A DNA stretch of 64,000 nucleotides, from assembly GCA_964371445.1 (NCBI GenBank), contig CAYJLK010000002.1, positions 43,718 to 107,717 on the forward strand. The letters run 5' to 3'. Source of the DNA: an uncultured Candidatus Saccharibacteria bacterium (GTDB lineage: Bacteria > Patescibacteriota > Minisyncoccia > Phycocordibacterales > Phycocordibacteraceae). Below are positions 34,898 to 62,741 of the stretch, piece after piece (position 1 is the stretch's first letter; each line of letters starts with the position of its first letter). The translations under genes and the position numbers were made by a program. The notes below the pieces were generated by a model, which was not told the origin of the DNA, did no database searches, and was given only the letters and a program-made list of their open reading frames with translations.

Positions 34898-34969
34898 GCC
34901 CCCGTGGTGAAATGGATATCACTGCTGACTTCGGATCAGCCGTTCCGGGTTCGAATCCTGGCGAGGGCA
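34898..34969 (+). tRNA. tRNA-Arg (anticodon TCG), CCA not encoded
   Basis: Cloverleaf: acceptor GCCCCCG/CGAGGGC (1 mismatch), anticodon loop CTTCGGA with G37, T-arm CCGGG-TTCGAAT-CCTGG. Followed by caagc. Confidence 0.75.
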
Positions 34970-35014
34970 CAAGCACTGGAAAAATAAACAGGTGACGTGT
35001 TATCATGTCGCCAG

Positions 35015-35085
35015 CGCGGGTATGGTTCAATGGTAGAACATCTGGTTGCCAATCAGATGATGGGAGTTCGATTCTCCCTACCCGC
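35015..35085 (+). tRNA. tRNA-Gly (anticodon GCC), CCA not encoded
   Basis: Acceptor GCGGGTA/TACCCGC perfect, anticodon loop TTGCCAA, T-arm GGGAG-TTCGATT-CTCCC. Confidence 0.8.
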
Positions 35086-35096
35086 ACTGAGTAAGG

Positions 35097-35137
35097 CAAA
35101 AAGAGAAAGACCGACATTGCGTCGGTCTTTCTCTTTT
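35097..35137. terminator. strong bidirectional terminator after the tRNA pair
   Basis: aaaaagagaaagaccgac-attg-cgtcggtctttctcttttt: a 15-bp stem flanked by A- and T-runs. Confidence 0.7.
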
Positions 35138-35307
35138 TCGCCGCGCGAAGTGCGGGTATGGGCATTTCCATACACGCACGACCAAAATCGTGATTTCGAA
35201 ACGACTTTGGAGTTGTGTACAAACCTGTGCACACTGGGGATAAAGGACAGCAGACTTTTTAACAAGTCCGTGAAATAGTAAGGAAATGAGCCGTATTTCT
35301 AAAAGCC

Positions 35308-35703
35308 GTGAACATAGCATCTCTCACCAGTAAACAGGTCGGTAACCTAGGAGAGAGCGTCGCTTGCGAGTATCTCAAGCGGCACGGATTCTCGATTGTC
35401 GACCGCAATATCGCGCGAAAAACGGGCGAGCTCGACATCATCGCAAAGAAAGAAAATACGCTCCATTTCGTCGAAGTGAAGACGGTCCTCGTGCACAGAT
35501 TCCCCGACGAAAACGACTCGCACGATGTGTACGATCCCTCGCTCAACTTGCACGAAGCGAAGGTGTACAAGGTCGCCCGCACGGGAGAGTGGTATGTCCT
35601 TGAGAAAGGCTGGGAAGGGGAGTGGCAGGTCGACGGAATCCTCGTGTGGCTCCGCCGCGCTGACGGCATGACCCGCGTCTCCTACCTGCCGCAAATCGTC
35701 TAA
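35308..35703 (+). CDS. YraN/UPF0102 family endonuclease-like protein
   Basis: GESVACEYLKRHGFSIVDRNIARKTGELDIIA is the YraN signature. 131 aa. Confidence 0.75.
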   Translation: MNIASLTSKQVGNLGESVACEYLKRHGFSIVDRNIARKTGELDIIAKKENTLHFVEVKTVLVHRFPDENDSHDVYDPSLNLHEAKVYKVARTGEWYVLEKGWEGEWQVDGILVWLRRADGMTRVSYLPQIV

Positions 35704-35706
35704 TCA

Positions 35707-35777
35707 TCGGGCCGCCGAGAATTGAACTCGGTCTGCCTGCTCCCAAAGCAGGTGTACTACCGGCATACTCCGGCCCG
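35707..35777 (-). tRNA. tRNA-Pro (anticodon TGG), CCA not encoded
   Basis: Minus-strand cloverleaf: acceptor CGGGCCG/CGGCCCG, anticodon stem-loop CCTGC-TTTGGGA-GCAGG with G37, T-arm CCGAG-TTCAATT-CTCGG. Confidence 0.75.
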
Positions 35778-35797
35778 TTGTCCTCATCGTATCAGCT

Positions 35798-36928
35798 TTA
35801 TGGTAAATTCGCAGTCACTATCGCCTCGAGCGTCGGTATTTGGGGCGCGAAGTCGGCGGCGGCCGTCGGAGGCGATTTCGCAAAGAGGAGATCGAGCGCC
35901 TGTCCGGTCACGCCCGCATACGTCGCGCGGATATAGGAGGCAGTGACCGCGTCGAGCGAGCGTGTCTCGGTCGCACCCTCGACAGTGCTCGTCGTGATGG
36001 TAGCGACAAGCATCTCGGATGCGTCGGCGACGCCGCCACCCGAAGATCCTTCCTGCGCCGCCGCCGAACCGCCGAGTGAGAGCACGTCGATCGTATTTGT
36101 CTTAAACGTGAAGACTCCCTTTACCGAACCGAAGACAATGATAGGGAAGAGAGCGGATTGTATTTGGCTCGACTCGAGAAATTGTGCACCGTAGGAGGCG
36201 ATGACCACCGGCGTGCCGGCGGAAGGCGGCGTCTGCGCGAGTGATATGAAAGGGAATTCTGCCGGAAGCGCATCTCTGGTCGCACTCTTCGTGACGGCAA
36301 GAATCGCGAAATCATATTCGCCGGTTCCCGTCGGCGCCGCGAGCGTGAGCACATTTGCATTTTCTGAGAGCCATGCGGAGGGGATGTAGGCCAGCGCCGC
36401 ATCATAGCGGTCGGCGGCCGGACTGCCGGCGCGGATGGTGCAGTCGGCGCCGCGGTCGGCGAGGAGGAAATACTGCGCGATATGCGCATTGGTGAGGATG
36501 AACCCTTTTGCGTCGACGATGACGCCGCTACCGGAGATCGAGTGTAGACCGCTCCCCGCGGGCATATAACAGATGATGTTCACGAGCGCAGCACGAAGCG
36601 TCGAGGCAGCGCGATCAAGCGCTCCAGCATCGGGGACCGGAGCCGAAACGATAACGGGAGTCGGAGCGGGAGTCGGGACTGGCATCGACGCCGCCGGCGA
36701 GACGGTCTTCTCTGGAACAGACGCCTTCTGTTCCGCCGGCGCTAGTTGCGGTAACGTTATATCCGGCAAGACGAGATCGGGCAAGACTAAGAGCGTCGAA
36801 GACGCGGCTTGCAGATTCGTCTCGGCGACACGCACGACGGTCACGCTCCCGGAGAAAGCGACGATGAAGATGCCCAGGATGAGGGCGACGACAATTCCGA
36901 GATAGGGCGCTAGGCGCGACATGTTCAA
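35798..36928 (-). CDS. membrane-anchored trypsin-like serine protease
   Basis: N-terminal TM, a His motif GFILTNAHIA and a Ser motif GSSGGGV. No PDZ domain. Confidence 0.75.
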   Translation of the reverse strand: MNMSRLAPYLGIVVALILGIFIVAFSGSVTVVRVAETNLQAASSTLLVLPDLVLPDITLPQLAPAEQKASVPEKTVSPAASMPVPTPAPTPVIVSAPVPDAGALDRAASTLRAALVNIICYMPAGSGLHSISGSGVIVDAKGFILTNAHIAQYFLLADRGADCTIRAGSPAADRYDAALAYIPSAWLSENANVLTLAAPTGTGEYDFAILAVTKSATRDALPAEFPFISLAQTPPSAGTPVVIASYGAQFLESSQIQSALFPIIVFGSVKGVFTFKTNTIDVLSLGGSAAAQEGSSGGGVADASEMLVATITTSTVEGATETRSLDAVTASYIRATYAGVTGQALDLLFAKSPPTAAADFAPQIPTLEAIVTANLP

Positions 36929-36960
36929 AGGCTAACCCAAAAATGGTATTCTCACCACAC

Positions 36961-37034
36961 GCGGGATTAGTTTAATGGTAGAACATCAGTTTTCCAAACT
37001 GATAGCACCGGTCCGATTCCGGTATCCCGCACCA
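36961..37034 (+). tRNA. tRNA-Gly (anticodon TCC), CCA encoded
   Basis: Acceptor GCGGGAT/ATCCCGC perfect, anticodon loop TTTCCAA, ends ...GCACCA. Confidence 0.8.
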
Positions 37035-41356: not shown

Positions 41357-41864
41357 ACATCTTCCGCGCTCGTTCAAAGGCTTCCATCGCCTTTGCGGCG
41401 CCCTCGTATCCGTCGATCTTCACTTCGACCGGTTTCCCTTTGAGACTCTTGTACGTCTCGAAGAAATGCACGAACTCCTTGAGCTGATGCTGATTGACGT
41501 CCTGCAGATCCTGTACATCATCCCAACGCCTATCCTCGACCGGCACGGCAATAATCTTCTCATCGGCGTCGCCGCCGTCGATCATATGAAGAATCCCCAC
41601 CGGCCGCGCGACGACGAGGACGCCGACGTCGAGCGGGTAGGTCGTGAGCACGATCACATCAAGCGCGTCGCCGTCGTCCCAGAGGGTCTGCGGCACGAAG
41701 CCGTAATCGAAGGGATAGGCCGCCGCCGAGTAATTGGCGCGGTCGAGCTTGATGAGACCGGTCTTCTTATCGATCTCATACTTGTTATGCGAGTCCTTGG
41801 GGATTTCAATGATGACGTTCATCGCCTCCTTCGTCCCCGGCTCAATGTCGTGCAGTAGGTTCAT
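41340..41864 (-). CDS. ppa: inorganic pyrophosphatase (family I)
   Basis: From Met15 of the ORF (MNLLHDIEPGTKEAMNVIIEIPKDSHNKYEID...) a canonical PPase. 14 in-frame upstream codons (MRAFASFINIISNG) with a GGGAGG SD lie inside the inverted-repeat element. Confidence 0.88.
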   Translation of the reverse strand: MNLLHDIEPGTKEAMNVIIEIPKDSHNKYEIDKKTGLIKLDRANYSAAAYPFDYGFVPQTLWDDGDALDVIVLTTYPLDVGVLVVARPVGILHMIDGGDADEKIIAVPVEDRRWDDVQDLQDVNQHQLKEFVHFFETYKSLKGKPVEVKIDGYEGAAKAMEAFERARKMYDDSK

Positions 41865-41943
41865 CCCGTTAGAAATTATGTTAATAAACGACGCAAACGC
41901 TCGCATACTTCCTCCCGCTCATTTCGGCATTTCTAACGGGATT
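41864..41943. repeat. inverted-repeat element ATCCCGTTAGAAAT-N52-ATTTCTAACGGGAT at the ppa start
   Basis: Seen directly. Arms at 41864-41877 and 41930-41943 (+/-1). On the ppa sense strand the order is TATAAT-8nt-ATGAATCCCGTTAGAAAT-22nt-ATG(M1)...ATTTCTAACGGG-ATG(M15). Confidence 0.6.
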
Positions 41944-41998
41944 CATATTCGTGGATTATAGCGCAGCGCCGACTTTTTCAAAGTCGGCGTTCGGTTTC

Positions 41999-43414
41999 CT
42001 ATTCGTCTTTCGCTTTGTCGCGATCTTCTCCAGCGTCAGCGACGGTCTCGTCGCTTGCAGGGAGCTGGGTCAGTTCCTCTTCAGCCGGGAGCTCGGTCGC
42101 CTGCGGCGCCTCGTCCGTAACAAGCTCCATGCTCTCGGTCGGCATGAGACCGACCGCAATGGCCGGATCCTCTTCAGGCGTGACGGCGACTGTCTCGCCG
42201 TCTGACTCCGCAACTTCGGCGCCGCCGGTTGAAACGATATCGATGTTCCAGCCGGTAAGCTTCGCCGCGAGGCGGACGTTCTGACCGCCCCTACCGATGG
42301 CGAGCGACTGTTCGTCTTCGGCGACCGTCACCGTCGCGCGGTGATCAGCCTCGTCGAGCACGACGTCAAGCGGGGTCGCGGGGGAGAGCGCCTCTTTTAT
42401 GAATGCTGCCGCATCATCATTCCACTCGATGATGTCGATGCGTTCGCCGCCGAGCTCGCTCATGACGGTCGAGACGCGCACACCGCGCTGACCGACGAGA
42501 GAACCGACCGGATCGACGTGCGGATCCTTCGAGGCGAGCGCGATCTTGGTGCGGCTCCCCGGCTCGCGCGCAAGCGCCTTCACTTCTATCGCGCCCGATG
42601 CGAGTTCCGGCGCTTCCATCTCAAACAGCTTCACCACGAACTTCGGATGCGCGCGGGAGAGGCGCAGATATACGCCGCGGAATCCCTCATCAACCGCATA
42701 GAGATAGGCGCGGATGCGCTCGCCCATACGGTACCGCTCGCCCGGAATCTGTTCCTCGTAGGGGATGATGCCGGTGGTGCGGCCGAGGTCGACAAAGATC
42801 GCCCCGCGCTCCATGCGCTGGACGATGCCGCCCACGATCTCGCCCTTTTTCTCGCCGAATTCCTCCATCATGGAGAGTTTTTCGGCCTCGCGCACCTTTT
42901 GGATGACCACCTGCTTGGCGGTCTGCGCCGCGATGCGGCCGAAGTCGTCCTGCGGCTCGAGCGGGAAGATAATTTCTTCATTCACGCTCACCCCGCGCTT
43001 CATCAGCTTCGCGTCGGCGAGCAGAATGTGCTTCTCGGGGTCAAAGCGCGGCAGCTCGCCTTCGGCGAGATGCTCATCGCCCTCATGAAATCCGTGCCCG
43101 TGCTGGTGCTCCTCGGGAATCTCTTCGCCCTCCTCGGGGAAACGCACCGTCGTGTCGTCCACGACGGTCTTTACCTGTTCAAAGGCAATCGTGCCCGTAT
43201 TGAGGTCGAGTTTTGCATGAACGACCTGTCCGCGCTTGCCGTATTCGCGCTTATACGCAGTCGCCATCGCGCTCTCAATCGCCTCGATCATGGTCGCGCG
43301 GCTGATGCCCCGATCTTCGAACTCTCCGAGCACTGCGTTGATGGTCTTTAGGTCAATCATGGTATGGGTTGTGTATGTTGCACTTTTTAAAAAGAAAGCC
43401 CGCAAAGCGGACAT
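41999..43414 (-). CDS. nusA: transcription termination/antitermination factor NusA with acidic C-terminal extension
   Basis: S1 plus two KH domains (GSRTKIALASKDPHVDPVGSLVGQRGVRV). Long Glu/Asp-rich C-term. True start probably MIDLKTINAV at about 43360. Confidence 0.88.
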   Translation of the reverse strand: MSALRAFFLKSATYTTHTMIDLKTINAVLGEFEDRGISRATMIEAIESAMATAYKREYGKRGQVVHAKLDLNTGTIAFEQVKTVVDDTTVRFPEEGEEIPEEHQHGHGFHEGDEHLAEGELPRFDPEKHILLADAKLMKRGVSVNEEIIFPLEPQDDFGRIAAQTAKQVVIQKVREAEKLSMMEEFGEKKGEIVGGIVQRMERGAIFVDLGRTTGIIPYEEQIPGERYRMGERIRAYLYAVDEGFRGVYLRLSRAHPKFVVKLFEMEAPELASGAIEVKALAREPGSRTKIALASKDPHVDPVGSLVGQRGVRVSTVMSELGGERIDIIEWNDDAAAFIKEALSPATPLDVVLDEADHRATVTVAEDEQSLAIGRGGQNVRLAAKLTGWNIDIVSTGGAEVAESDGETVAVTPEEDPAIAVGLMPTESMELVTDEAPQATELPAEEELTQLPASDETVADAGEDRDKAKDE

Positions 43415-43511
43415 TCAGATAGTTGCAAGTATACCAGATACGCTTCGCACGTCAATAATGTGTGCAATGAGCGTTTTGCCCATAGCAGAGCGCGCTATAC
43501 TTATCCGTAAT

Positions 43512-45260
43512 ATGCACGTTTCGGAAGGCGAACTGAAAGAATTCATCACTGATTCTGGCCTTGTCGCCAAGAAAGAGATCGATGCCGCCGACAAAGAAGC
43601 AAAAGCGCGCGGACAATCGCTCGGTGCGGTCCTCGTCTCGCGCGGTTCTCTGACCGAAGACGCGCTCCGGCGCATCCAGGCATACGTGCTCGGCATTCCG
43701 TTCGTCAATCTTAAGGAACATCGCGTTCCCGTCGACGTGCTCGCGCTCATCCCAGAACCGATTGCGCGCACGCACAACATCATCGCGTTTAAGAAGGACG
43801 GCGACTCCCTTGAAGTGGCGATGCTCGACGTCGAAGACCTCGCATCGATCGACTCGGTGCGGAAGAAGACGGGGCTCAAGATCCTTTCGCGGCTGACCGA
43901 CACGGAGAGCATCAAGTATACGCTTCTGCAATACCAGAAGTCGCTGAAGGACGAGTTCGGCGATATCATCTCGACCGAAGCGGGGAAGATCCGCGTCGTA
44001 ACGGAGGGCGGGAAGGAGCTCTCGGGCGACGAACTGAAAAAGATGGCCGAGGATCTGCCGATCGTGCGCATCGTCGACACCCTGCTCCGCCACGCGATCG
44101 TCCAGGGCGCCTCCGACATCCATATCGAACCGATGGAGAGCGAAGTGCTCGTCCGCTATCGCATCGACGGCATTCTCCACGATGCGATGACACTCCCGCG
44201 GCCTGCGGCCGCGGGCATCGTCGCACGCATCAAGGTCTTGTCCAACTTAAAGCTCGATGAGAAGCGCCTCCCCCAGGACGGCCGGTTCAAGATGGAGACT
44301 GAAGCCGATCGAGTATCCTTCCGCGTCTCGATACTCCCGACCTTCTTCGGCGAAAAGACCGTTATGCGCCTTCTGCGCGAGACCGGAGAAGGCTTCACGC
44401 TTGATGTGCTCGGGCTCCACGGCGAGAATATGGAGCGCATCCACCACGCGCTCACGCAAACGACCGGTATCATCCTTGTCTCGGGGCCGACCGGAAGCGG
44501 AAAGACGACGACGCTCTATACGATGCTCGACATTTTGAATCAGCCGGACGTCAATATCTCCACTGTCGAGGATCCAATCGAATACCAGATGAAGCGCGTG
44601 AACCAGACGCAGGTGAATCCGCAGATAGGATTTACCTTCGCGAGCGGACTCCGGTCCCTCGTGCGCCAGGACCCGGACATCATCATGGTCGGCGAGATCC
44701 GCGACAGCGAGACGGCGTCGCTCGCAATCAATGCCGCACTGACCGGTCACCTGGTCCTCTCGACCATCCACACCAACAGCGCCGCGGGCGCCATTCCGCG
44801 GCTTATCGATATGGGCGTCGAACCGTTTCTGTTGGTCTCTACGCTCCGCGTCATCATCGGTCAGCGCCTCGTGCGCAAGCTCTGCGAGGGCAAGGAGCAA
44901 TACTCAATGGACAAGGCGACACGCGGGAAGATCGCGAGCGAAGAAGAGTTCAATGTTGCATTCAAAACGCTTAAGGACGAGAAGCTGGTGAAAGAAGGTT
45001 CCACGCTCGACGACATCGCGTTCTATCGGCCGAAGGAGTCCGCCGAATGCGCCGACGGATACAAGAGCCGCATCGGCATTCATGAAGTGCTCTCAGTCTC
45101 GCCGACCATCCGCGAGATTATGCTGCACTCGAGCACGAGCGGCGCTATCGAGGAGCAGGCGAAGAAAGAAGGCATGCTCACGATGTTTGAAGATGGACTC
45201 TACAAGGCCGCGCGCGGCGTTACCTCAGTCGAAGAAGTGCTCCGCGCCATCACCGAATAA
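43512..45260 (+). CDS. pilB: type IV pilus assembly ATPase PilB/GspE family
   Basis: Trimmed to MHVSEGELKEF.... GspE N-domain, Walker A VSGPTGSGKTTTLYT, and a tetracysteine-like region. Confidence 0.88.
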   Translation: MHVSEGELKEFITDSGLVAKKEIDAADKEAKARGQSLGAVLVSRGSLTEDALRRIQAYVLGIPFVNLKEHRVPVDVLALIPEPIARTHNIIAFKKDGDSLEVAMLDVEDLASIDSVRKKTGLKILSRLTDTESIKYTLLQYQKSLKDEFGDIISTEAGKIRVVTEGGKELSGDELKKMAEDLPIVRIVDTLLRHAIVQGASDIHIEPMESEVLVRYRIDGILHDAMTLPRPAAAGIVARIKVLSNLKLDEKRLPQDGRFKMETEADRVSFRVSILPTFFGEKTVMRLLRETGEGFTLDVLGLHGENMERIHHALTQTTGIILVSGPTGSGKTTTLYTMLDILNQPDVNISTVEDPIEYQMKRVNQTQVNPQIGFTFASGLRSLVRQDPDIIMVGEIRDSETASLAINAALTGHLVLSTIHTNSAAGAIPRLIDMGVEPFLLVSTLRVIIGQRLVRKLCEGKEQYSMDKATRGKIASEEEFNVAFKTLKDEKLVKEGSTLDDIAFYRPKESAECADGYKSRIGIHEVLSVSPTIREIMLHSSTSGAIEEQAKKEGMLTMFEDGLYKAARGVTSVEEVLRAITE

Positions 45261-45336
45261 CTATGCCCCGTATGACAACCTCAATCTTCAAGCGTTTTTC
45301 TAAAGAGGCAACTTATGTAAAGTTGTCATACGGGGT

Positions 45337-46551
45337 ATGAAATTTCGCGTCACTATACGCAAAGAGGGAGTGCCGGATGTCGAGAGCCTCATCGAGGCGC
45401 CGTCACGCTTCGCAGTATACGAACAAGTGCAGAATGATGGCGGGTTCGTCGTCAAACTTTCCGAAGTGGGCCGGGCATCCGCCCTATCAAAGTGGCTTTC
45501 CTACAGCATCGGCACCGGCATAAAGCGCTCCGAGATTATCCGCATGGTGCGGAACCTTTCCGCGATGCTCACCGCCGGGCTCTCGCTGTCGCGCGCGCTC
45601 TCGGTCATCGAACGGCAATCGGGCAACGCGCACCTGAAGGCGATCATCATCGAGCTCTCCGATTCGATAAAGAAAGGATCCTCATTCCATGAGGGATTGA
45701 GCGCTCATCCGAACGTGTTCCCTAAGATACTCGTCGCGATGGTGCGCGCCGGTGAAGAGTCGGGCTCTCTGTCCGATGCGCTTCTCATCGTCGGACTGCA
45801 GATGGAGCGTTCTGAAGAGCTCATACGCAAGATTAAGGGCGCGATGATCTATCCCTCGATTGTTATTTCGACGGTCATTATCGTCGGCATCCTGATGCTC
45901 ATCTATGTTGTCCCGACGCTCACCCACACCTTTAATCAGCTCGGCGTTGAAGTGCCGCTCGCAACCCGCATCATCGTCGGCCTTTCGAACTTCATGGTGG
46001 CTCATATCATCCTTGTCCTCGCGCTACTTATCGCAGGCGTCGTCGGCGGCATCGCCGCGGCGCGTTCGAGGTGGGGGAGCAATCTCATCCTTGCCGGAGC
46101 GCTGTATCTGCCGGTCATCGGGGAGCTCGTGCGAGAAACATACACCGCACGCGCGGCGCGGACGCTTTCGTCGCTCCTCTCTTCGGGCGTACCGGTCCTC
46201 GACGCCCTTTCTATTACGAAGGAGGTTGTGCGCGCAGATGCATTCGCGAACGTGGTTGGAGAAGCGGAAGAGCACGTGAAGAAAGGGGAGCTTCTCTCCG
46301 CGTCATTCGCCGAACACACGCGGCTCTATCCGATCCTGATGAGCGACATGCTCGCCGTCGGAGAAGAGACGGGCAAGGTCGCCGAGATGCTGAAACAGAT
46401 TGCAGAATTTTATGAAGCAGATGTCGCCGCGCAGACGAAGGACCTCTCGACCATCATCGAGCCGGTGCTCATGCTCGTCATCGGCGCCTTCGTCGGCATC
46501 TTCGCCGTCTCAATCATCGCGCCGATCTACTCGCTCTCCTCAGCGTTTTAA
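45337..46551 (+). CDS. pilC: type IV pilus inner-membrane platform protein PilC/GspF family
   Basis: 404 aa with two T2SSF repeats and 3 TM. Confidence 0.88.
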   Translation: MKFRVTIRKEGVPDVESLIEAPSRFAVYEQVQNDGGFVVKLSEVGRASALSKWLSYSIGTGIKRSEIIRMVRNLSAMLTAGLSLSRALSVIERQSGNAHLKAIIIELSDSIKKGSSFHEGLSAHPNVFPKILVAMVRAGEESGSLSDALLIVGLQMERSEELIRKIKGAMIYPSIVISTVIIVGILMLIYVVPTLTHTFNQLGVEVPLATRIIVGLSNFMVAHIILVLALLIAGVVGGIAAARSRWGSNLILAGALYLPVIGELVRETYTARAARTLSSLLSSGVPVLDALSITKEVVRADAFANVVGEAEEHVKKGELLSASFAEHTRLYPILMSDMLAVGEETGKVAEMLKQIAEFYEADVAAQTKDLSTIIEPVLMLVIGAFVGIFAVSIIAPIYSLSSAF

Positions 46552-48318: not shown

Positions 48319-48863
48319 AGGTTTCGCAGATACAGATGCTCGCGGAGATGCGTCTGCACCGTATCTCCACGAATCAAAGCACTCGTGGTGGCATCGACGG
48401 TGACGCTCGCGACTGCAGGGAAGCTCGCACTATCGTAGGTGAAGCTGAGCGCATCGAGCGCGGATGTCAGCTGTTTCTCCCCCGAGACGCGCGCACTGCC
48501 GGCCGCCGCGTCAGTGAGCCGATAGGCATTCGTACCCGACGCAAAGATACCGATATAGTCATAGGTGTTCGCGATAGTGGCGCCCGATGCATCGATGGCG
48601 GGGAGCTCGAAGACTGCGGTCGTCGTCCCCGACGTATACGCAACGCCGGAAAAGACGTGCGACGCGACGACGTGGTCCGCCTGCAACCCCGCAGTGCGCA
48701 CCGCATCCATAATACTGCTCCCACCGAGCGTGATGCCAATCGATGATTTCTGCAATGAAATAAAATGCCCGTACACGACGGAGAGCTGTGTCACCGCCAG
48801 TATGAGAACGACGAAGAGTGCGACGGTGATGAGTGTCTCGATGAGGGTAAAGCCGCGAGTCAT
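48315..48863 (-). CDS. type IV pilin-like protein (prepilin signal)
   Basis: MTRGFTLIETLITVALFVVLILAV is a class III signal peptide with G-FTLIE. 182 aa. Confidence 0.75.
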   Translation of the reverse strand: MTRGFTLIETLITVALFVVLILAVTQLSVVYGHFISLQKSSIGITLGGSSIMDAVRTAGLQADHVVASHVFSGVAYTSGTTTAVFELPAIDASGATIANTYDYIGIFASGTNAYRLTDAAAGSARVSGEKQLTSALDALSFTYDSASFPAVASVTVDATTSALIRGDTVQTHLREHLYLRNL

Positions 48864-48866
48864 AGA

Positions 48867-49250
48867 TTAGAGGCCTCCCGACTGGGTGAGGAGTGTGGTG
48901 AACGAAACGGCGCGTGTCGACCCGTTCACGCCCTGCCACGAGACGCCGGTCATTACCTGTTTTGTCTTCGTATTCCAGACGGTGACGCTGGTGCTTGCCT
49001 GCCCCTGCGGCAGGGAAGCAAGCCCAGGGTCGAAGAACGGACCGTCTGCGGGAAGGGCGTCGTATCCTCCGGCGCGGAGCTCGTCGAGCTTGCTGTCCGC
49101 TATGCGGAACGCGATATTTTCATACGCGGCGTCGCGCACGCCGCCGACCGCGCCGACGACAAACATCGTAAAAGCGACGGTGAGGCTCATGATAAAGAGT
49201 GCGACGAGCATCTCGATCAGGGTGAATCCTGTTTTTTTGCGTACAGCCAC
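48867..49250 (-). CDS. type IV pilin (candidate major pilin), GTG start
   Basis: Within the longer ORF-track call. (V/M)AVRKKTGFTLIEMLVALFIMSLTVAFTMFVV is a textbook prepilin N-terminus. The start was trimmed to the GTG at 49250 so the gene no longer runs antisense across the tpiA promoter and start. 127 aa. Confidence 0.65.
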   Translation of the reverse strand: MAVRKKTGFTLIEMLVALFIMSLTVAFTMFVVGAVGGVRDAAYENIAFRIADSKLDELRAGGYDALPADGPFFDPGLASLPQGQASTSVTVWNTKTKQVMTGVSWQGVNGSTRAVSFTTLLTQSGGL

Positions 49251-49301
49251 TACAAAAGTATAGCAAGCTCGTCGACAAGTGAATTTGTTATACTTCCTCG
49301 T

Positions 49302-50045
49302 ATGCTTATCGTTGCAAACTGGAAAGCGTATGTCGAAGACGTTAAAAAAGCGAAGAAGCTCTTTTCGACGAGCAAGAGGCTCGCGCGCGTGACCGGCGCT
49401 ACTATCGTGCTCGCACCTCCCGCACCCTTGCTCGGCGCTCTTGCCGTCAACAATAAATCGGCGGTCGCCTTTTCCGCACAAGACATTTCTGCCACTACCG
49501 GAGGCGCCCTGACCGGAGAAGCGACCGCGGGAGCCTACGCCGCGGCAGGCGCGACCTATGTAATCGTCGGGCATTCCGAGCGCCGCGCGATGGGCGATAC
49601 CGACAGCGTCATCGTCGAGAAGCTCGCGCGCACCTTCGCGAACGGGCTTCGACCTATCCTCTGCATCGGCGAGCGCGAACGCGACAGCGAAGGCCGCTAC
49701 CTCTCCTTTCTCCGCGAAGAACTGACCGTCGCGCTTCGAGCGCTCACGCCCAAAGAGCGCGCACAAACCATCATTGCCTACGAGCCTCTGTGGGCTATAG
49801 GCAAAACGGCGGCATTCGCCATCCCGCCAAACGATCTAGCTGAAATGGTGCTCTATATCCGCAAAGTGCTTGCGGAATTCCTTCCGGGAAGAGGTTCTGC
49901 CGGTATTCCCATACTCTACGGAGGCTCAGTCGAGCCGGAGAATATCCGTGCACTTGCAGCCCTCTCGAGCGTCGATGGCTTCCTCGTCGGACATGCCTCG
50001 GTCGATCCCGCGCTCTTCGCGGCGCTCGTCCAACAGCTCGCGTAA
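49302..50045 (+). CDS. tpiA: triosephosphate isomerase
   Basis: Trimmed to MLIVANWKAYVED.... Motifs IVGHSERR and AYEPLWAIGTG-like (AYEPLWAIGKT). Confidence 0.88.
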   Translation: MLIVANWKAYVEDVKKAKKLFSTSKRLARVTGATIVLAPPAPLLGALAVNNKSAVAFSAQDISATTGGALTGEATAGAYAAAGATYVIVGHSERRAMGDTDSVIVEKLARTFANGLRPILCIGERERDSEGRYLSFLREELTVALRALTPKERAQTIIAYEPLWAIGKTAAFAIPPNDLAEMVLYIRKVLAEFLPGRGSAGIPILYGGSVEPENIRALAALSSVDGFLVGHASVDPALFAALVQQLA

Positions 50046-54256: not shown

Positions 54257-55777
54257 ATGAGTGTCTTGATTTCAGTCACTGGAGGGTTTGTGAGCGGGGT
54301 AGGACTCCGCTCGCTTTTTTATTTCGGGTGGGAGCCGGCGGCGTTTGTGATGATACTCGCGGCACTTCTTGGTGCCGCGGCATTTTATAAGCCGCGAGTC
54401 GTGTACACGATGGGTACAGTGTTTTGTTTATTCGTCGCGTTCGGGATGGTGCGCTCAACAGTCGCCGATACGCCGCCGCCCGAGGCGTTTGTGCGCGACC
54501 TGAAGCATCGCGTGTCGTATGAAGCAGTGGTGGTGGGGGACCCGGATGTGCGCGAGAAGAATCAAAGGATTGCGATTCAAGTGGGGGATGTGGGCATGCT
54601 TGCCGTGATGCCGCTCTCGGCTCGCGTAGCGGTCGGCGACCGCGTGCGCGTCTATGGCACGCTTTCCTTGCCGCAAGCGTTTGAGACCGAAAATGGTCGG
54701 ACATTTCGTTATGACAAATATCTCGAGGCGCGCGGTATCCGCTTTCTTATCCAATACGGGACGATATATACACAGGAGCCAGCACTGTGGTATTCGGTTC
54801 CGGCCGCCTTAGCACGCATCAAGCACTCATTTCTCGACGGGCTCAACCGCGCATTGCCGACACCGGACAGCGCGCTCGCGGGCGGCATCGTGATAGGAGG
54901 GAAGCAGGGGCTCGGCACCGAACTCCAAGAGGCATTCACGCGCTCGGGGCTCGTCCAGATCATCGTGCTCTCGGGCTACAACGTGATGATAGTCGCCGAA
55001 TGGGTGATGGCATTCTTCGCGCTCCTTGCGCTCCCGCGCCGTCTCCAATTCTTTGCTGGCGGGGCGGCACTCCTCCTCTTTGTTGGCATCGCCGGCATCT
55101 CCGCCACGGCGGTGCGTGCCGCCATCATGGCGGTCATCGCGCTCTACGCGCGAGCGACCGGGCGCTCCTATGCCGCGAGCCGTGCGCTCCTATTCGCCGT
55201 CCTCCTCATGCTCATATGGAATCCGCTCTATCTCGTCTTTGACCCCGGCTTCGGTCTCTCGGTCGCCGCGACCGCAGGCATCATCTGGCTCGCCCCGATT
55301 ATTGAACGCATGATGGACTTCGTAGGTCCATCATCAGATGAGGGACCTACGAAGTCCCGACATGGGTTCTGGACAAACACAATTGCGACCACGCTCGCCG
55401 CGCAAATCTCGGTACTTCCATTATTGCTCTACAACATCGGACTCTTCTCGCTCGTCGCACTGCCGGCGAATATCCTGGTGAACCCGCTCGTGCCGCTCGC
55501 GATGGCTCTCGCCGCTATTGCGGGAGTCGTCGGCATGACTATCGGACCTTTCATTCCATTTATCACCGCCGTCATCGGCGCCCCCGCCCACCTCCTCATG
55601 CGCTACTTCATCTTTATCGCAGAAAAAAGTTCCGCACTGCCGTATGCGGCATTCAATCTGCCCCTCTTCTCATTTTGGCTCGTCCTCGCCGCGTATGCGG
55701 CGCTCATTTATATAGTCGCGTCGAAGCGCTTCTCGACGACCGACCAGTTCACATTCGCGAAAAAGGCGTCGACATAA
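54257..55777 (+). CDS. comEC: DNA internalisation competence protein ComEC/Rec2 (no C-terminal metallo-beta-lactamase domain)
   Basis: DUF4131-like N-region plus a polytopic competence domain (QIIVLSGYNVMIVAEWV). 506 aa; ends after the TM bundle. Confidence 0.8.
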   Translation: MSVLISVTGGFVSGVGLRSLFYFGWEPAAFVMILAALLGAAAFYKPRVVYTMGTVFCLFVAFGMVRSTVADTPPPEAFVRDLKHRVSYEAVVVGDPDVREKNQRIAIQVGDVGMLAVMPLSARVAVGDRVRVYGTLSLPQAFETENGRTFRYDKYLEARGIRFLIQYGTIYTQEPALWYSVPAALARIKHSFLDGLNRALPTPDSALAGGIVIGGKQGLGTELQEAFTRSGLVQIIVLSGYNVMIVAEWVMAFFALLALPRRLQFFAGGAALLLFVGIAGISATAVRAAIMAVIALYARATGRSYAASRALLFAVLLMLIWNPLYLVFDPGFGLSVAATAGIIWLAPIIERMMDFVGPSSDEGPTKSRHGFWTNTIATTLAAQISVLPLLLYNIGLFSLVALPANILVNPLVPLAMALAAIAGVVGMTIGPFIPFITAVIGAPAHLLMRYFIFIAEKSSALPYAAFNLPLFSFWLVLAAYAALIYIVASKRFSTTDQFTFAKKAST

Positions 55778-56298
55778 TTCTTCTTCTCTGCCGGCACATA
55801 GTCCACCATATACGCGTGCTCCCAGAGGTCGAGCGCGAGCAGGATAGGGAGGCCGGCGAGTGATCCGAGTTCATGGTCGTTCACAAAGACCGTGTGTAAT
55901 GTCTTCCCGATAGGGTCGGCATAGACGACGACCCAGCCGATGCCGCGGCTCTGTGCGACTTCTCGCATGTGCGCCTCGAGTGTTTTCTCTCCGTACTTCT
56001 CGGTTATTGCCTTCGCGAGCGCCCCATCGCCCGTGAGGGAAGTCTGACTTCCTTCAAACTGTTCAAAGTAATATTCGTGGAGGCGCATCCCGTTGAATTC
56101 AAAGGCGAGCCGTCTACGCATCTCGGCTATCGCATATTTCCCACCCTCATCTTCTGTCTGTCCATACGCGGCGATGGTCGCCATGATGAGATTCACATGC
56201 TTCACGTACCCCTCATAGAGGGCGAGGTGCACTTTCACCTGCTTTTCTGAAATCCCCGAGAGAATAGGGAGGTCGAACTGTTTTGCGGTGTAGGTCAT
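55708..56298 (-). CDS. sodA: Fe/Mn superoxide dismutase
   Basis: Trimmed to MTYTAKQFDLP.... Motifs HLALYEGYV, FNGMRLHEYYF, DLWEHAY. Confidence 0.88.
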   Translation of the reverse strand: MTYTAKQFDLPILSGISEKQVKVHLALYEGYVKHVNLIMATIAAYGQTEDEGGKYAIAEMRRRLAFEFNGMRLHEYYFEQFEGSQTSLTGDGALAKAITEKYGEKTLEAHMREVAQSRGIGWVVVYADPIGKTLHTVFVNDHELGSLAGLPILLALDLWEHAYMVDYVPAEKKNYVDAFFANVNWSVVEKRFDATI

Positions 56299-56419
56299 AG
56301 ACCTAAAATGTACCATTCATTTACAAGAACTCCATGTAGACAGCGGATAGAAACTCGTGAAGTCTTTGAACACAAAGACGGGCCCTTCATGAGGGGTCCG
56401 TCTTCAGGAGCGCGCCGTT

Positions 56420-56683
56420 TCATTCCGCTACACTCCCAATTTCCGGGAAAGTGCCGGTAAGGAAGGCGGGGGTGCCGACCATTTCTGCTCTGATGAAAAG
56501 TACCAGGCCGTTTTCTTCATGCCTGCTCACGCCGCCAGCTTTGACGAGTTGTTCGGCGGCCTCCTCAATTTCCGCTTCCGATACCCCTTGGAGATACGTC
56601 TGGAGATCGCGCGGCCGTACGCCTTTCCCGATAGGAAGACACAACCGAACTTTTGCCTGCAGTTCCATTGAGCTTATGTTCAT
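56420..56683 (-). CDS. hypothetical small protein
   Basis: 87 aa; no recognisable family. Confidence 0.45.
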   Translation of the reverse strand: MNISSMELQAKVRLCLPIGKGVRPRDLQTYLQGVSEAEIEEAAEQLVKAGGVSRHEENGLVLFIRAEMVGTPAFLTGTFPEIGSVAE

Positions 56684-56763
56684 GACAGCTCCTTTGTCCG
56701 TGGGAACATTCCCATATATAAAATACCTCGGTACCGGGATGAGTCCACCGCCCGAGGTGGATA

Positions 56764-57006
56764 TTAAATCGCTTTTGCCTTCTTGAGGGCGGCGAAGGCG
56801 CCGTTCTTCTTGATGGTCTTAAGGCCTTTCATGGAGACGTCCACAATAATAGTCTTATTCAGCTCCGCCACATAGATGCGGCGCTTCTGGAGGTTCGCCT
56901 TGCGACGGACCTTGCCGGTCGGATTAAATTGCGTCGCACGGGTACGGTTCGAGTACCGCCCGCCGATCTGGGTGGTCTTGCCGGTGATGTCACATTTTCT
57001 TGCCAT
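56764..57006 (-). CDS. rpmB: 50S ribosomal protein L28
   Basis: MARKCDITGKTTQIGGRYSNRTRATQFNP... Confidence 0.88.
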   Translation of the reverse strand: MARKCDITGKTTQIGGRYSNRTRATQFNPTGKVRRKANLQKRRIYVAELNKTIIVDVSMKGLKTIKKNGAFAALKKAKAI

Positions 57007-57118
57007 AAAATATATTTAGTAGATACCTTGCCATAGGAGGCCTGCCCCGTAGCCAGCCGAGCGAAGCGAGGCTGTGGTACTGGGGCGCATGGTAGCATAG
57101 GTTCGTAAACGAGCAAAC

Positions 57119-57751
57119 ATGGTCACCCTCCTCACGTTCACTATCCTTATCCTTTCCATCATCGTCCACGAGGTGGCGCACGGCTACGCCGCCAACTCGC
57201 TCGGCGATCCGACCGCCCGCCTCGCCGGCCGTCTCACCCTGAATCCCATCCCGCACATCGACCTCATGGGCTCGATCGTCCTCCCCGCCCTGCTGGTCTT
57301 CACAGGGTCCCCGATCATGTTCGGATGGGCGAAGCCGGTACCCTATAATCCTTACAATCTAAAGAATCAGCGCTGGGGCGAATCGCTCGTCGCGGTCGCC
57401 GGAAGCGCGACGAATATCCTCCTTGCGATTATCTTCGGCCTCATCGTGCGATTCGGCGGCTCGCTCGGATTTGATGCGACGGCGCTTTCTCTGGCGGCGA
57501 CTATCGCCTTCATCAACCTCTTCCTCGGCCTCTTCAATCTCATCCCGTTCCCCCCGCTCGACGGCTTTACCGTACTTCGTTCGGTGCTCCCGTGGCACCT
57601 CTCCTCCGGCTTCGCCCGCCTCGAACAGCACGTCCGCGCCGCGGGAGTCATTTCGCTCCTACTCTTCCTCTTCATCTTCTCCTACCTGCTCGCGACTCCT
57701 TTTTTCAACCTCGTCCTCTGGCTTTTCGGGCTCCTCGCGGGGAAAGGGTAG
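57119..57751 (+). CDS. site-2 protease family (M50-like) membrane metalloprotease
   Basis: HEVAHGYAANSLGDPTARLAGRLTLNPIPHIDLMGSIVLP, the COG1994 signature. 210 aa, polytopic. Confidence 0.75.
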   Translation: MVTLLTFTILILSIIVHEVAHGYAANSLGDPTARLAGRLTLNPIPHIDLMGSIVLPALLVFTGSPIMFGWAKPVPYNPYNLKNQRWGESLVAVAGSATNILLAIIFGLIVRFGGSLGFDATALSLAATIAFINLFLGLFNLIPFPPLDGFTVLRSVLPWHLSSGFARLEQHVRAAGVISLLLFLFIFSYLLATPFFNLVLWLFGLLAGKG

Positions 57752-58089
57752 AAGTCTCTGGTACTCAAAAGGGAAGAGGCGACGAATCGCCTCTTGGCTC
57801 AGAGAACGTTTGCCCAACGGGGGCCGTATACGCAAGGAAACAAATGCTCGTACTGTGAGTCACTGATCCGGTGGTTGTTCTCGGAGAAAATAATCGGACA
57901 GAGGCAAATGTGACACGTTTGTTGCTGCCTTTCTTCTTCTTTGTGCGCTTGTGCAATAAGTGCAAGGGTAAAGCCGGCTGACATGTCCATACGCCCTCCT
58001 TTCCGATCTAAAGAGCAGATCGCACACTATAAGCATATACCCACTTCTGACGCGCAACTCCGTTATGCACTACTGCTATACTACGGGGA

Positions 58090-58524
58090 ATGGAATACCA
58101 GGTGCCGCAGTTCATTGAAGTCGAGGACAAGATCATCGGTCCTTTGACCTTGAAACAATTCATCTATATCGCCGGAGCAAGCGGACTCTGCATCGTTTTC
58201 TTCGTCTATTTACCCATCATCGTCGCCCTCCTCCTCGCGGCGCCGGTGGCAGGGCTCGCAGCGGCACTCTCGTTTTATAAGATGAACGGGAAACCGTTCA
58301 TCGAGGTGCTCGAGGCCGGATTCAGTTATTACACGCGGGGGAAACTCTTCCTCTGGAAACATCAGGACCAAAAGGTCCAGGAAGAGAGCGTCGCGGATAC
58401 GGCCGCCGCGGAGATTCCGTCGCCGCGCGCCACGCCGAAGCTCACGCGCGGGAAGCTCTCGGAGCTTGCGTGGTCGCTCGACGTACAGAAGGCGGGCGGC
58501 AATGCCGAGAACAAGAATCCCTGA
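58090..58524 (+). CDS. PrgI-family / VirB3-like small membrane protein of monoderm-type T4SS
   Basis: MEYQVPQFIEVEDKIIGPLTLKQFIYIAG followed by two TM helices. Immediately upstream of the VirB4 N-domain ORF. Confidence 0.6.
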   Translation: MEYQVPQFIEVEDKIIGPLTLKQFIYIAGASGLCIVFFVYLPIIVALLLAAPVAGLAAALSFYKMNGKPFIEVLEAGFSYYTRGKLFLWKHQDQKVQEESVADTAAAEIPSPRATPKLTRGKLSELAWSLDVQKAGGNAENKNP

Positions 58525-58525
58525 T

Positions 58526-59161
58526 ATGGCGGTACCCTCAGCAAGCGCAACCCAGCAGTTCGTTCCGGTGAAGGAGATCCGGAACGGCATCATTATCCTC
58601 AAAGACGGCGGCTACCGCGGCGTGCTTATCTGTTCCTCGATCAACTTCGGACTCAAGTCGGCCGATGAACAGCACGCGATCACGCTCGGCTTCCAGAATT
58701 TCCTCAATACGCTCGACTTCTCGATACAGATTGTTATCAATTCGCGCCGGATGGACCTGCGTCCCTACCTCGCGCTCCTGGGAGAAAAGTCCGCCGAACA
58801 AAAGACAGAGTTGATGCGGATCCAACTTCGCGAGTATATCGAATTCGTCCGCTCCTTCACCGACCAGGCGAATATCATGACGAAATCTTTTTACGTCGTC
58901 GTCTCATACACGCCGCATGTCAGCGCCGCGAGCGCGACCAGCTTCCTGCGGCGCGAGAATGCCGCGGTGAAGAGCGCCGCTGCCGAGACTTCTTTCGAAG
59001 AAGATCGGGCTCAGCTCGAACAAAGGCTCACACTCGTCGCCGCCGGTCTTGCAGGCACCGGCGTTCGCGCGGTCCCGCTCGGTACTGAAGAGGTCATCGA
59101 ACTGTTGTATCGTTCATTTAATCCGGGCGAACTTGAGAACCCTATCAGGCTCGATAATTAA
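58526..59161 (+). CDS. VirB4/TraE-family N-terminal domain as a separate ORF
   Basis: QQFVPVKEIRNGIIILKDGGYRGVLICSSINFGLKSADEQHAITLGFQNFLNTLDFSIQIVINSRR matches the N-terminus of Gram-positive-type VirB4. Ends 4 nt before the ATPase ORF, in a different frame. Confidence 0.7.
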   Translation: MAVPSASATQQFVPVKEIRNGIIILKDGGYRGVLICSSINFGLKSADEQHAITLGFQNFLNTLDFSIQIVINSRRMDLRPYLALLGEKSAEQKTELMRIQLREYIEFVRSFTDQANIMTKSFYVVVSYTPHVSAASATSFLRRENAAVKSAAAETSFEEDRAQLEQRLTLVAAGLAGTGVRAVPLGTEEVIELLYRSFNPGELENPIRLDN

Positions 59162-59165
59162 ACGT

Positions 59166-60992: not shown

Positions 60993-61635
60993 CGCCGAGC
61001 CACCGAAGGTGATGACCTGGGGAAAGGCAGCACCGATTCTTGCTGTGTGTGTCATCTTCGACGCGCTGCGCCTCATGTTCGAAATGTTCTGGTTCTTCGG
61101 ACCGGCGATGGCCGCCCTCTACTGCACCGTTAAGGTGAGCGGGGTGGTCGGAACGACCTTGGGAGGATTTGCCTGCGGTGTCGGCGCTACGGTGGCGGGA
61201 ACCCTCGGAGCTCCCGCCATAGAGGTTTTCGGCGTCGTGATGGCGATAGCTGTCGGACTCTTCGGATGGCTCGTCATCGGACTCTGGCTCATGGTAACGA
61301 ACGCGCGCATTTTCAAAGAGAATGCCGCCTGGTTTGCCGGTAGTCTCCTCATAAGCGAGATACCTATTGTCGGTTCGATACCCGCACTTACCATCATCGT
61401 CTGGAAAATGTACCGCACGCAAATCACGCTAGAAAAAGCCGAGATGCAGCGCTATGAACAGGAGCGAGCCGCTGCCGAACGGCAGGAGCGCGAACAACGA
61501 ATCGCCCTCGTACTCCACAACCAATCACTGCAACAAGCGCAGATCGAGCAGGAAGAGGCGGCGGACGATGCGCTCTCTGCCGAAGCCGCAAATGATGATG
61601 AATATATCCCCCAAAAGATGAGAGAGGCGGCGTGA
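60973..61635 (+). CDS. polytopic membrane protein with coiled-coil C-terminal tail (VirB6-like candidate)
   Basis: 4-5 TM helices then QRYEQERAAAERQEREQRIALVLHNQSLQQAQIEQEE. A GAGAAGGA SD precedes the ATG at 60973. Overlaps the VirB4 end. Confidence 0.55.
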   Translation: MPQKRNSAEPPKVMTWGKAAPILAVCVIFDALRLMFEMFWFFGPAMAALYCTVKVSGVVGTTLGGFACGVGATVAGTLGAPAIEVFGVVMAIAVGLFGWLVIGLWLMVTNARIFKENAAWFAGSLLISEIPIVGSIPALTIIVWKMYRTQITLEKAEMQRYEQERAAAERQEREQRIALVLHNQSLQQAQIEQEEAADDALSAEAANDDEYIPQKMREAA

Positions 61636-62663: not shown

Positions 62664-62741
62664 ACCCCGTTAGAAATCACGAACAAAATATGAAAGATAA
62701 AAATGTGGCAGGAAGTCGCATGGGTTCTATTTCTAACGGGG
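62660..62741. repeat. second copy of the inverted-repeat element ATGAACCCCGTTAGAAAT-N51-ATTTCTAACGGG-GTG
   Basis: Arms at 62665-62677 and 62729-62740. Same arm sequence, spacing and flanking ATGAA / RTG as the ppa copy. Spacer sequences are unrelated. Confidence 0.6.

Follow-up and report, generated by a model that had tools for sequence, protein, structure and literature searches.

A putative miniature transposable element in the start codon of ppa of an uncultured Candidatus Saccharibacteria bacterium, and similar elements at other gene starts

Introduction

The MITEs (miniature inverted-repeat transposable elements) of bacteria, such as Correia/NEMIS of Neisseria, ERIC, RUP and Nezha, are shorter than 100 bp, possess terminal inverted repeats (TIRs) and a target-site duplication, carry no transposase gene, and occur as dispersed copies which are co-transcribed with their neighbours as hairpins and are missing from the empty sites of relatives. 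An inverted-repeat element sharing these properties is described here from a 64,000-nt stretch of an uncultured Candidatus Saccharibacteria bacterium (assembly GCA_964371445.1, contig CAYJLK010000002.1, positions 43,718 to 107,717; the whole stretch is called the window below), in which it lies at the start of ppa, the gene of inorganic pyrophosphatase (PPase). It is very probable that the inverted repeat represents the ends of a non-autonomous, MITE-like DNA transposon inserted into the ppa start codon, as perfect TIRs, a target-site duplication, empty orthologous sites, a small size and several dispersed copies are all found, two of the copies within the 64 kb of the window.

Unlike in the known bacterial MITEs, about 41% of the copies of the family lie on a start codon, always in the sense orientation, and their ends regenerate this codon. 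Known MITE families are restricted to a genus or a species, whereas identical 13-bp ends, the only conserved part of the element, occur here in more than 10 phyla; a search through about 1 Mb of loci and through the window revealed no parent insertion sequence (IS). Start-codon insertion is not mentioned in a 2024 review of prokaryotic MITEs, and a literature search by arm sequence and by keywords returned no description of the sequence or of the phenomenon. Three properties appear to be novel, namely residence on start codons in the sense orientation, ends regenerating the start, and a spread across phyla with identical ends.

The nearest functional analogue is given by Rickettsia palindromic elements, mobile palindromic repeats that reside inside protein-coding genes and are translated as in-frame peptide insertions (PMC10969869). 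A similar in-frame translation is suggested for the second copy in the window, at a pilin gene, and for its orthologues. Compared by description, the Rickettsia elements are about 100-150 bp long, lie inside open reading frames (ORFs) and are confined to Rickettsia, whereas members of the present family occupy the first codon, are frequently out of frame and rely on a regenerated start, with a clear TIR, a 4-bp YNNR duplication and hosts in many phyla. The two copies of the window differ in this respect: copy 1, at ppa, is out of frame (82 nt) and has an internal or regenerated start, and copy 2 is in frame.

Insertion sequences of the IS1380 family and the eukaryotic piggyBac transposons have ends beginning with CC(C) and a duplication of 4-5 bp (in piggyBac TTAA, with the TIR CCCTAGAAAG...). 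The ends of the present element, (y)CCCGTTAGAAAT, together with its 4-bp YNNR duplication, which includes TTAA, recall these transposons, which is a lead only. No transposase gene of any family was seen next to or between such ends in the loci and the window searched. The stop in or beside the 3' arm, 0-4 nt from the restored start, resembles termination-reinitiation (ATGA and TAAnnnnATG junctions) and the hairpin-bridged ribosome-binding site of T4 genes 25/38, and in copy 2 the TGA of the upstream gene overlaps the ATG as in translational coupling. In the known cases such an arrangement evolved in place, whereas here it would have been carried in by a mobile element. Integron attC sites (57-141 bp) are likewise imperfect palindromes with GTTRRRY-like cores, and the element arms contain GTTAGAA and TTCTAAC. 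An attC site was nevertheless rejected, because the order is reversed (GTTAG...CTAAC against RYYYAAC...GTTRRRY), the last core base misfits, and the element lies with a duplication at the 5' ends of genes and not at the 3' ends of cassettes.

Probable insertion at the ppa start codon

The empty ppa site is present in a sister genome (locus L125, GCA_028687085.1), where the same promoter is followed directly by ATGAACCTACTG and the PPase is 91% identical. The site reads ...GCCGACTTTGAAAAAGTCGGCGCTGCGCTATAATCCACGGAT|ATGAACCTACTG (ATGAACCTACTGCACGA in an extended reading of the downstream side) and holds a single ATGAA. Deletion in silico of positions 41860-41941 (82 bp, that is the 78-bp element and one TGAA) renders the window colinear with this genome, 58 of 59 nt around the site being identical at a ppa coding sequence (CDS) identity of only 82%. 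The terminator hairpin, the TATAAT box and the spacer are the same in L125 and both arms are absent; the ppa loci L121, L123 and L126 likewise have no arms. A metagenome scan for the exact empty ppa site gave 0 matches. The element itself is identical and in the same orientation in three independent assemblies of this population (L128-L130), the 188-aa ppa product is recorded, together with an identical element, on at least 23 contigs, and the element-bearing ppa allele is fixed in this population.

On the ppa sense (minus) strand the TATAAT box (41960-41955) is followed by 8 nt (CCACGAAT), by ATGAATCCCGTTAGAAAT at 41946-41929, by 22 nt containing GGGAGG (41916-41911), and then by ATG 41906-41904 (Met1) and 13 codons, the final four being ATT TCT AAC GGG, before ATG 41864-41862 (Met15). 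This anatomy, a 14-codon in-frame extension led by a Shine-Dalgarno (SD) sequence and bracketed by the arms, had been given in a preliminary description of the locus and was confirmed with coordinates differing by at most one base. A repeat search returned two fully complementary (100%) segments of 14 nt (41863-41876 and 41929-41942) separated by a 52-nt gap. Four exact copies of the 12-mer CCCGTTAGAAAT, forming two inverted pairs (41865/41929 and 62666/62729), are present in the 64-kb window; looser matches to it are at chance level, and no additional degenerate copies of the element were found in the window with up to 5 mismatches allowed.

Met15 is the canonical start, as MNLLHDI is found at or near the N-terminus in 17 of 17 close PPase orthologues read. 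Translation from Met1 gives MRAFASFINIISNG-MNLL..., and the upstream ATG at 41946 lies 82 nt from Met15, hence in a frame different from that of ppa. The element would have landed in A|TGAA|C, leaving the original ATG, the TATAAT box and the nusA terminator upstream, and its terminal purine would, with the duplicated TG, have rebuilt an ATG directly before the intact PPase ORF. The coordinates of both copies are collected in Table 1.

Table 1. Features of the two element copies and of the genes into which they are inserted
Feature	Position	Strand	Remark
Element proper, copy 1, 78 bp, T..A type	41864-41941	-	TCCCGTTAGAAAT + 52-nt interior + ATTTCTAACGGGA
5' TIR TCCCGTTAGAAAT, ppa sense	41929-41941	-	exact 12-mer search and inverted-repeat search; this 13-mer also delimits the 123 family copies of other genomes
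3' TIR ATTTCTAACGGGA	41864-41876	-	last base A41864 is the A of the regenerated ppa start codon
Upstream TGAA target-site duplication	41942-41945	-	with A41946, the original ppa ATG
Downstream TGAA target-site duplication	41860-41863	-	with the terminal A of the element, ATG-AA(C), Met15 canonical start
TATAAT -10 box	41955-41960	-	8 nt before the original ATG, no SD in between; kept in L125
Mini-ORF MNPVRNAEMSGRKYASVCVVY*, original ATG into element	41881-41946	-	21 codons, out of frame with ppa
'Third arm' GAGCGGGA	41913-41920	-	overlaps SD GGGAGG (41911-41916)
ppa ORF as taken by gene callers, Met1, 188 aa	41340-41906	-	14-aa element-encoded extension MRAFASFINIISNG
Canonical PPase, 174 aa	starts 41864	-	Met15
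Element copy 2, 77 bp, C..G type	62665-62741	+	CCCCGTTAGAAAT + 51-nt interior + ATTTCTAACGGGG
Upstream TGAA duplication, copy 2	62661-62664	+	ATG 62660 overlaps TGA stop of ORF 61632-62663 (ATGA coupling junction)
Downstream TGAA duplication, copy 2	62742-62745	+	
T4SS pilin gene (PF18895)	62660-63544	+	coupled ATG in frame with the gene, the frame staying open across the element; 27-aa extension MNPVRNHEQNMKDKNVAGSRMGSISNG

The second copy at the pilin gene

That one element is common to ppa and to a pilin gene of a type IV secretion system (T4SS) had already been noticed and is borne out by the second copy (62665-62741). This copy reads ATGAA-CCCCGTTAGAAAT, a 51-nt interior and ATTTCTAACGGGG-TGAAGAAA, its terminal G being the G of the GTG which opens the signal peptide MKKTTLILSV. 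The outermost arm pair is T..A in copy 1 and C..G in copy 2, a compensated difference, and the interiors of the two copies cannot be aligned. An empty pilin site is offered by L131 and L132, which read ...TTCGGCCT|ATGAAAAAG and keep the ATGA overlap with the upstream gene. The sharing of the element by ppa and the pilin gene is the result of two independent insertions, and the evidence for insertion means that it reflects transposition and not a regulon.

Pilin orthologues without the element start with MKK..., and P0122-P0134 have no extension. Extensions homologous to that of copy 2 are encoded in other Patescibacteria, in L090 (MNPVRNYKRDMKIKSKMLISNGVKK) and, as similar MNPVRN...ISNG peptides, in P0135, P0205 and P0214; decayed forms of the extension or arms are seen in P0145, P0207 and P0220. 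In spite of changes in length, every one of these extensions has stayed open, and in frame with the ATG that is coupled to the upstream gene. A comparison of the window with L090 gives about 68% identity in the flanks and about 61% in the interiors, the arms and duplications being identical. By these comparisons copy 2 is the older insertion and probably a translated one.

Extent and ends of the family

Related elements were sought with exact arms in one genome per species, which yielded at least 120 loci. All family counts rest on 123 copies among the matches listed, having exact 11-nt arms and interiors of 35-65 nt, and gene starts at these copies were derived from ORFs, not from gene calls. 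The hosts comprise many classes of Patescibacteria, Pirellulales, Phycisphaerae and Sedimentisphaerales (Planctomycetota), Omnitrophota, Desulfobacterota, delta-proteobacterial and Thermodesulfobacteriota metagenome-assembled genomes (MAGs), Elusimicrobia, Nitrospiraceae, WOR-3, KSB1 and others. In the preliminary description a small genome-wide family of regulated starts had been envisaged; a family located at gene starts does exist, but it is large and extends over many phyla.

The members are 61-91 bp long and end in 13-bp TIRs, yCCCGTTAGAAAT ... ATTTCTAACGGGr. The 12th arm pair is C..G in 119 of the 123 copies and the 13th is complementary in 115; conservation is confined to the ends, the interiors being not conserved. 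An exact 4-nt repeat flanks 74 of the 123 copies, as against 9.4 expected with shuffled pairing (maximum 16), and in a further 19 copies the flanking repeat has one mismatch. Every one of the 74 exact duplications fits YNNR (TGAA/TTCA 30, TAAA/TTTA 15, TGGA 6, TTGA 4, TGAG 4, and others). A duplication of 5 or 6 bp that would include the y and r bases was tried and rejected, for in 14 ATGAAC...GTGAAn copies y and r remain complementary while the direct repeat fails, which assigns both bases to the element. Two loci of a single Elusimicrobia MAG (L048 and L109) have identical 67-nt cores in different flanks, and identical cores at different sites indicate recent transposition.

Several variants were noted besides. 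In one sub-family (L012 688, L013 23, L015 3398, L022 2510, L065 1985) a conserved extra 5' extension, ACyTGTCCCGTTAGAAAT, is present, often with TATAAT 6 nt upstream and without a matching target-site duplication; it precedes unrelated genes (Mur ligase, ThrRS, SMC, exonuclease, XRE regulator) and may begin at the transcription start site. Another (L010, L018, L021, L043, L048, L050, L109) is marked by an interior that is rich in GC and strongly self-complementary, such as AGCCCGCCC...GGGCGCGC...GCGCGGGCG. Different Patescibacteria and other MAGs show conservation of this interior, L048 and L109 having a GC-rich core of their own, identical in the two. There are also mini versions with 5-23 nt between the arms (among L082 4745, L114 5445, L037 4522 and 7078, L054 7930, and L034 5805) and, in the same set of loci, a longer version of about 100 nt with compensated arm changes (AGAAGT / GCTTCT), so the size range of the family is wider than the 35-65 nt searched.

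Residence at start codons

In 51 of the 123 copies an ORF of 60 or more codons begins with the junction triplet, which consists of the last base of the element and TG from the duplication, and always in the sense orientation. The genes concerned have canonical N-termini and are unrelated (GalU, DnaA, SMC, Gmk, CorA, RarA, ProRS, LeuRS, ThrRS, HisA, CysE, RsmE, HPF, pyruvate kinase (pyk), ribosomal proteins L3 and L24, MurJ, pilins, a sulfatase with a twin-arginine translocation (Tat) signal and other sulfatases), so that they do not form a regulon. According to a crude analysis, many of the remaining copies lie within tens of nt of the start of a long open frame. By our own estimate a start-codon share of 41% greatly exceeds what would be expected under neutrality, since a gene has about one start-codon site against tens of intergenic YNNR sites; the excess reflects either a target preference or strong survivorship. 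Among the 35 copies that keep an upstream start codon, 11 have a match of at least 5/6 to TATAAT 6-9 nt upstream and no SD, and an SD-like motif is present in only 5, so that many targets look leaderless.

The ends of the element are well suited to such a position. Its last base is G in 76 and A in 39 of the 123 copies, and with a purine there the start codon is rebuilt as GTG or ATG. Read directly in frame 0, the 3' arm (ATT TCT AAC GGG rTG) is open and encodes ISNG; in frame +2 it places a TAA 4 nt ahead of the restored start, and in frame +1 a stop/start overlap, rTGA, arises when the duplication is TGAA. The polarity of the interior is fixed, as CGGGr (the 'third arm', complementary to the 5' arm) is found in 24 of the 51 sense copies and the reverse motif in 0 of 51. 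In 18 of 22 copies of the GTG type the frame is open either from an in-frame ATG located 8-11 codons upstream or from the original ATG, as compared with an in-frame open ATG in 2 of 29 copies of the ATG type (Fisher p = 4e-8), which mostly have neither an SD nor an in-frame ATG.

We put forward tentatively, as a possibility short of probable, that these elements constitute a previously undescribed, cross-phylum, start-codon-homing mobile family with a built-in design for restarting translation. With such a design, not even essential genes of streamlined genomes (dnaA, tRNA synthetases, ribosomal proteins, ppa) would be closed to the element. Homing may be directed at positions +1 to +5 of leaderless genes and not be a matter of survivorship alone, and the element can donate new N-termini, for example signal-peptide extensions or a prepilin leader.

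Two further loci were recorded. At L041 (1255-1390) the 5' end of a type IV prepilin gene contains a family member whose 3' arm has one extra G and is read in frame as M-I-T-K-I-S-K-R-G|FTLIELLVV, so that start codon, leader peptide and conserved Gly all come from the element. In a Phycisphaerae MAG (L071 3455 and 7822) the element stands in frame before MNRRDFLK in two paralogous Tat-signal sulfatase genes; the near-identity of their interiors and upstream flanks places the gene duplication after the insertion.

Proposed expression of ppa after insertion

The ppa mRNA was probably leaderless originally, to judge from the -10-like hexamer close to the ATG without an SD; the same arrangement, a -10-like hexamer 6-9 nt before the ppa ATG and no SD, is found in L121, L123, L125 and L126. 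After the insertion, transcription from the old, probably leaderless +1 would yield 5'-AUGAAUCCCGUUAGAAAU..., and ribosomes starting at the 5'-terminal AUG would translate the mini-ORF of 21 codons, unwinding the 5' arm and melting the hairpin. PPase could then be made by two routes, from the element-borne SD GGGAGG and Met1 with the 14-aa extension, or by re-initiation at Met15, which is located 16 nt past the mini-ORF stop; one or the other is most likely, and a dedicated regulator is unnecessary for ppa expression if the element is read as a transposon. The RNA of copy 1 has a predicted fold of -29.6 kcal/mol (z = -3.05 to -3.25), in which the loop leaves the SD GGAGG unpaired, while the first two bases (A and U) of the Met15 AUG take part in pairing at the base of the stem. 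A weaker alternative helix of 7 bp (predicted -8.4 kcal/mol) can form between the third arm GAGCGGGA and the 5' arm, and a third arm overlapping the SD may, in this model, leave room for regulation of ppa.

The nusA-ppa spacer (41944-41999, minus strand) is more conserved between the window and L125 (58/59 nt) than the ppa CDS (82%). Just past the nusA stop it holds a perfect 10-bp hairpin (41967-41989, CGCCGACTTT / AAAGTCGGCG, with a 3-nt loop and no U-tract), and TTGAAA in the loop and 3' side of this hairpin could serve as a -35 for the TATAAT box of ppa. In L128 and L129 the hairpin downstream of nusA differs in sequence, the TATAAT box and the element being identical to those of the window. 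The gene upstream of ppa is called in L128 (458-1879) as a product of 473 aa that lacks any Pfam hit, where L130 (547-1908) has a NusA of 453 aa, and the sequence immediately 5' of the TATAAT box also deviates there; this could be strain variation or a mis-assembly of the nusA 3' end.

Alternative explanations

Several observations weigh against the transposon reading and its extension to the family. Neither an autonomous element nor a transposase with the same ends turned up in the roughly 1 Mb of loci or within the window: the unpaired arms met in the search for a parent were degenerate or mini copies, the long-range TIR pairs with matching duplications were neighbouring start-codon copies only, all-against-all clustering of ORFs from the 120 loci gave no recurrent transposase-like family, and neither copy in the window has a transposase or recombinase gene near it. 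Mobility is argued from duplications and empty sites only, and identical 13-bp ends across more than 10 phyla are unusual for a MITE. The frame bias at start-codon copies (22:20:9) is marginal (p = 0.056) and is not used as evidence, no full sigma-70 -35/-10 promoter was called at ppa by a consensus promoter scan, and the use of Met1, of Met15 or of re-initiation is read from the sequence. Finally, the identity of the arms in the old pilin insertion could hint at a host-level constraint on the hairpin, although exact arms were what led to L090. As for other origins, viral contigs gave only 3 matches to the element and hence no phage link, Rfam gave no match overlapping an element on the window (gathering score), on copy 1 (E up to 10) or on 15 other family loci, and Pfam and NCBIfam found nothing in the element-encoded peptides beyond the downstream Tat signal.

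It is conceivable, yet unlikely, that an exapted cis-regulatory RNA hairpin now controls ppa translation, an explanation that is compatible with a mobile origin. The 14-bp stem would sequester the Met15 AUG, the 5' arm would alternatively pair with the third arm over the SD, and the choice between Met1, Met15 and an off state would fall to mini-ORF translation, to temperature or to a binding factor. Such a role is favoured by the strong predicted folding (z = -3.05 to -5.21), by the alternative 5' arm:third arm helix (-8.4 kcal/mol) overlapping the SD, by a third arm that co-varies with the arm type at a fixed polarity (24 versus 0), and by fixation of the insertion on at least 23 contigs. Perfect arms in the old pilin insertion despite 32% flank divergence point the same way, but this comparison is biased, as L090 was found by exact arms, and the arms have decayed in the pilin orthologues P0220, P0207 and P0145. 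Moreover, in the sister genomes ppa has the same promoter but no element, the interiors lack conservation from copy to copy, and no Rfam match exists for copy 1 or 15 other loci. Conservation at the orthologous position upstream of the same gene is absent at four ppa loci and is seen only in the pilin lineage. The preliminary description had instead regarded the arms as half-sites (TTAGAAAT) of a DNA- or RNA-binding regulator giving ppa and the pilin gene a common input, which the presence of the same 12-14-nt arms at two gene starts in one window made attractive. No support was obtained for it and it is now very improbable: the genes behind the 51 start-codon copies, from many phyla, are functionally unrelated, TGAA duplications flank both copies, and the gap between the half-sites is 51-52 nt in the window and 35-65 nt elsewhere. 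Orthologous ppa genes retaining the promoter without the arms had been named in advance as evidence against this regulator, and L125 is such a case, the arms being absent from L121, L123 and L126 as well.

Perfect inverted repeats around a segment with an SD and a start codon could also be those of an invertible switch, in which a recombinase flips the segment and turns ppa on or off. This has next to no probability, given that all copies which could be scored have their interior in the sense polarity (24 versus 0), that a single orientation is found in the three independent assemblies (L128-L130), that the 4-bp duplications and empty sites indicate insertion, and that there is no recombinase gene nearby; a 52-bp interior is, besides, very short for recombinase synapsis. 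Silencing of the insertion at the RNA level would require either that the hairpin is excised or cleaved at its base, which recreates a leaderless AUG, or that ribosomes hop from AUG-AAy to rUG-AAn. The (A)UGAA direct repeats flanking a stable hairpin, the many leaderless-looking targets (11/35) and the ATG-type copies mostly without an SD or in-frame ATG would suit it. Known hops (T4 gene 60) have matched take-off and landing codons, but the codons after the two starts often differ here (AAC versus AAG in copy 2), the pilin copies have been kept open and in frame across lineages, which argues for translation, and no ribozyme or known RNA family was matched; this explanation is therefore judged highly doubtful. 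Insertion of a MITE-like transposon into the ppa start codon remains the preferred reading.

Significance

Gene callers take the element-encoded Met1 as the start of ppa and an internal ATG as that of the pilin gene, and dozens of housekeeping genes in uncultivated phyla hence carry spurious or real 'MNPVRN...ISNG' N-termini in annotation. A transposon regenerating the start codon which it splits would, if true, be a new route to harmlessness in gene-dense genomes, and the element would be a natural portable translation-initiation cassette. The identical 13-bp ends in more than 10 phyla point to a transposase of very broad host range or to an unknown mobilising activity among groundwater and sediment bacteria. 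The element can also serve as a handle on how leaderless genes of Patescibacteria tolerate an added 5' hairpin.

Other features of the window

Four tRNA genes, three on the plus and one on the minus strand, are found by Rfam within 2 kb at 34898-37031. Type IV pilus genes resembling pilB (T2SSE) and pilC (T2SSF) adjoin nusA at 43236-46551, and the region 54257-63544 comprises comEC (Competence, DUF4131), a TraG/VirB4-like ATPase and the T4SS pilin operon with copy 2. Directly before pgk lies the triosephosphate isomerase ORF (48765-50045), in which the Pfam domain covers residues 180-424; the roughly 180 residues preceding it are either an over-extended call or an N-terminal extension.

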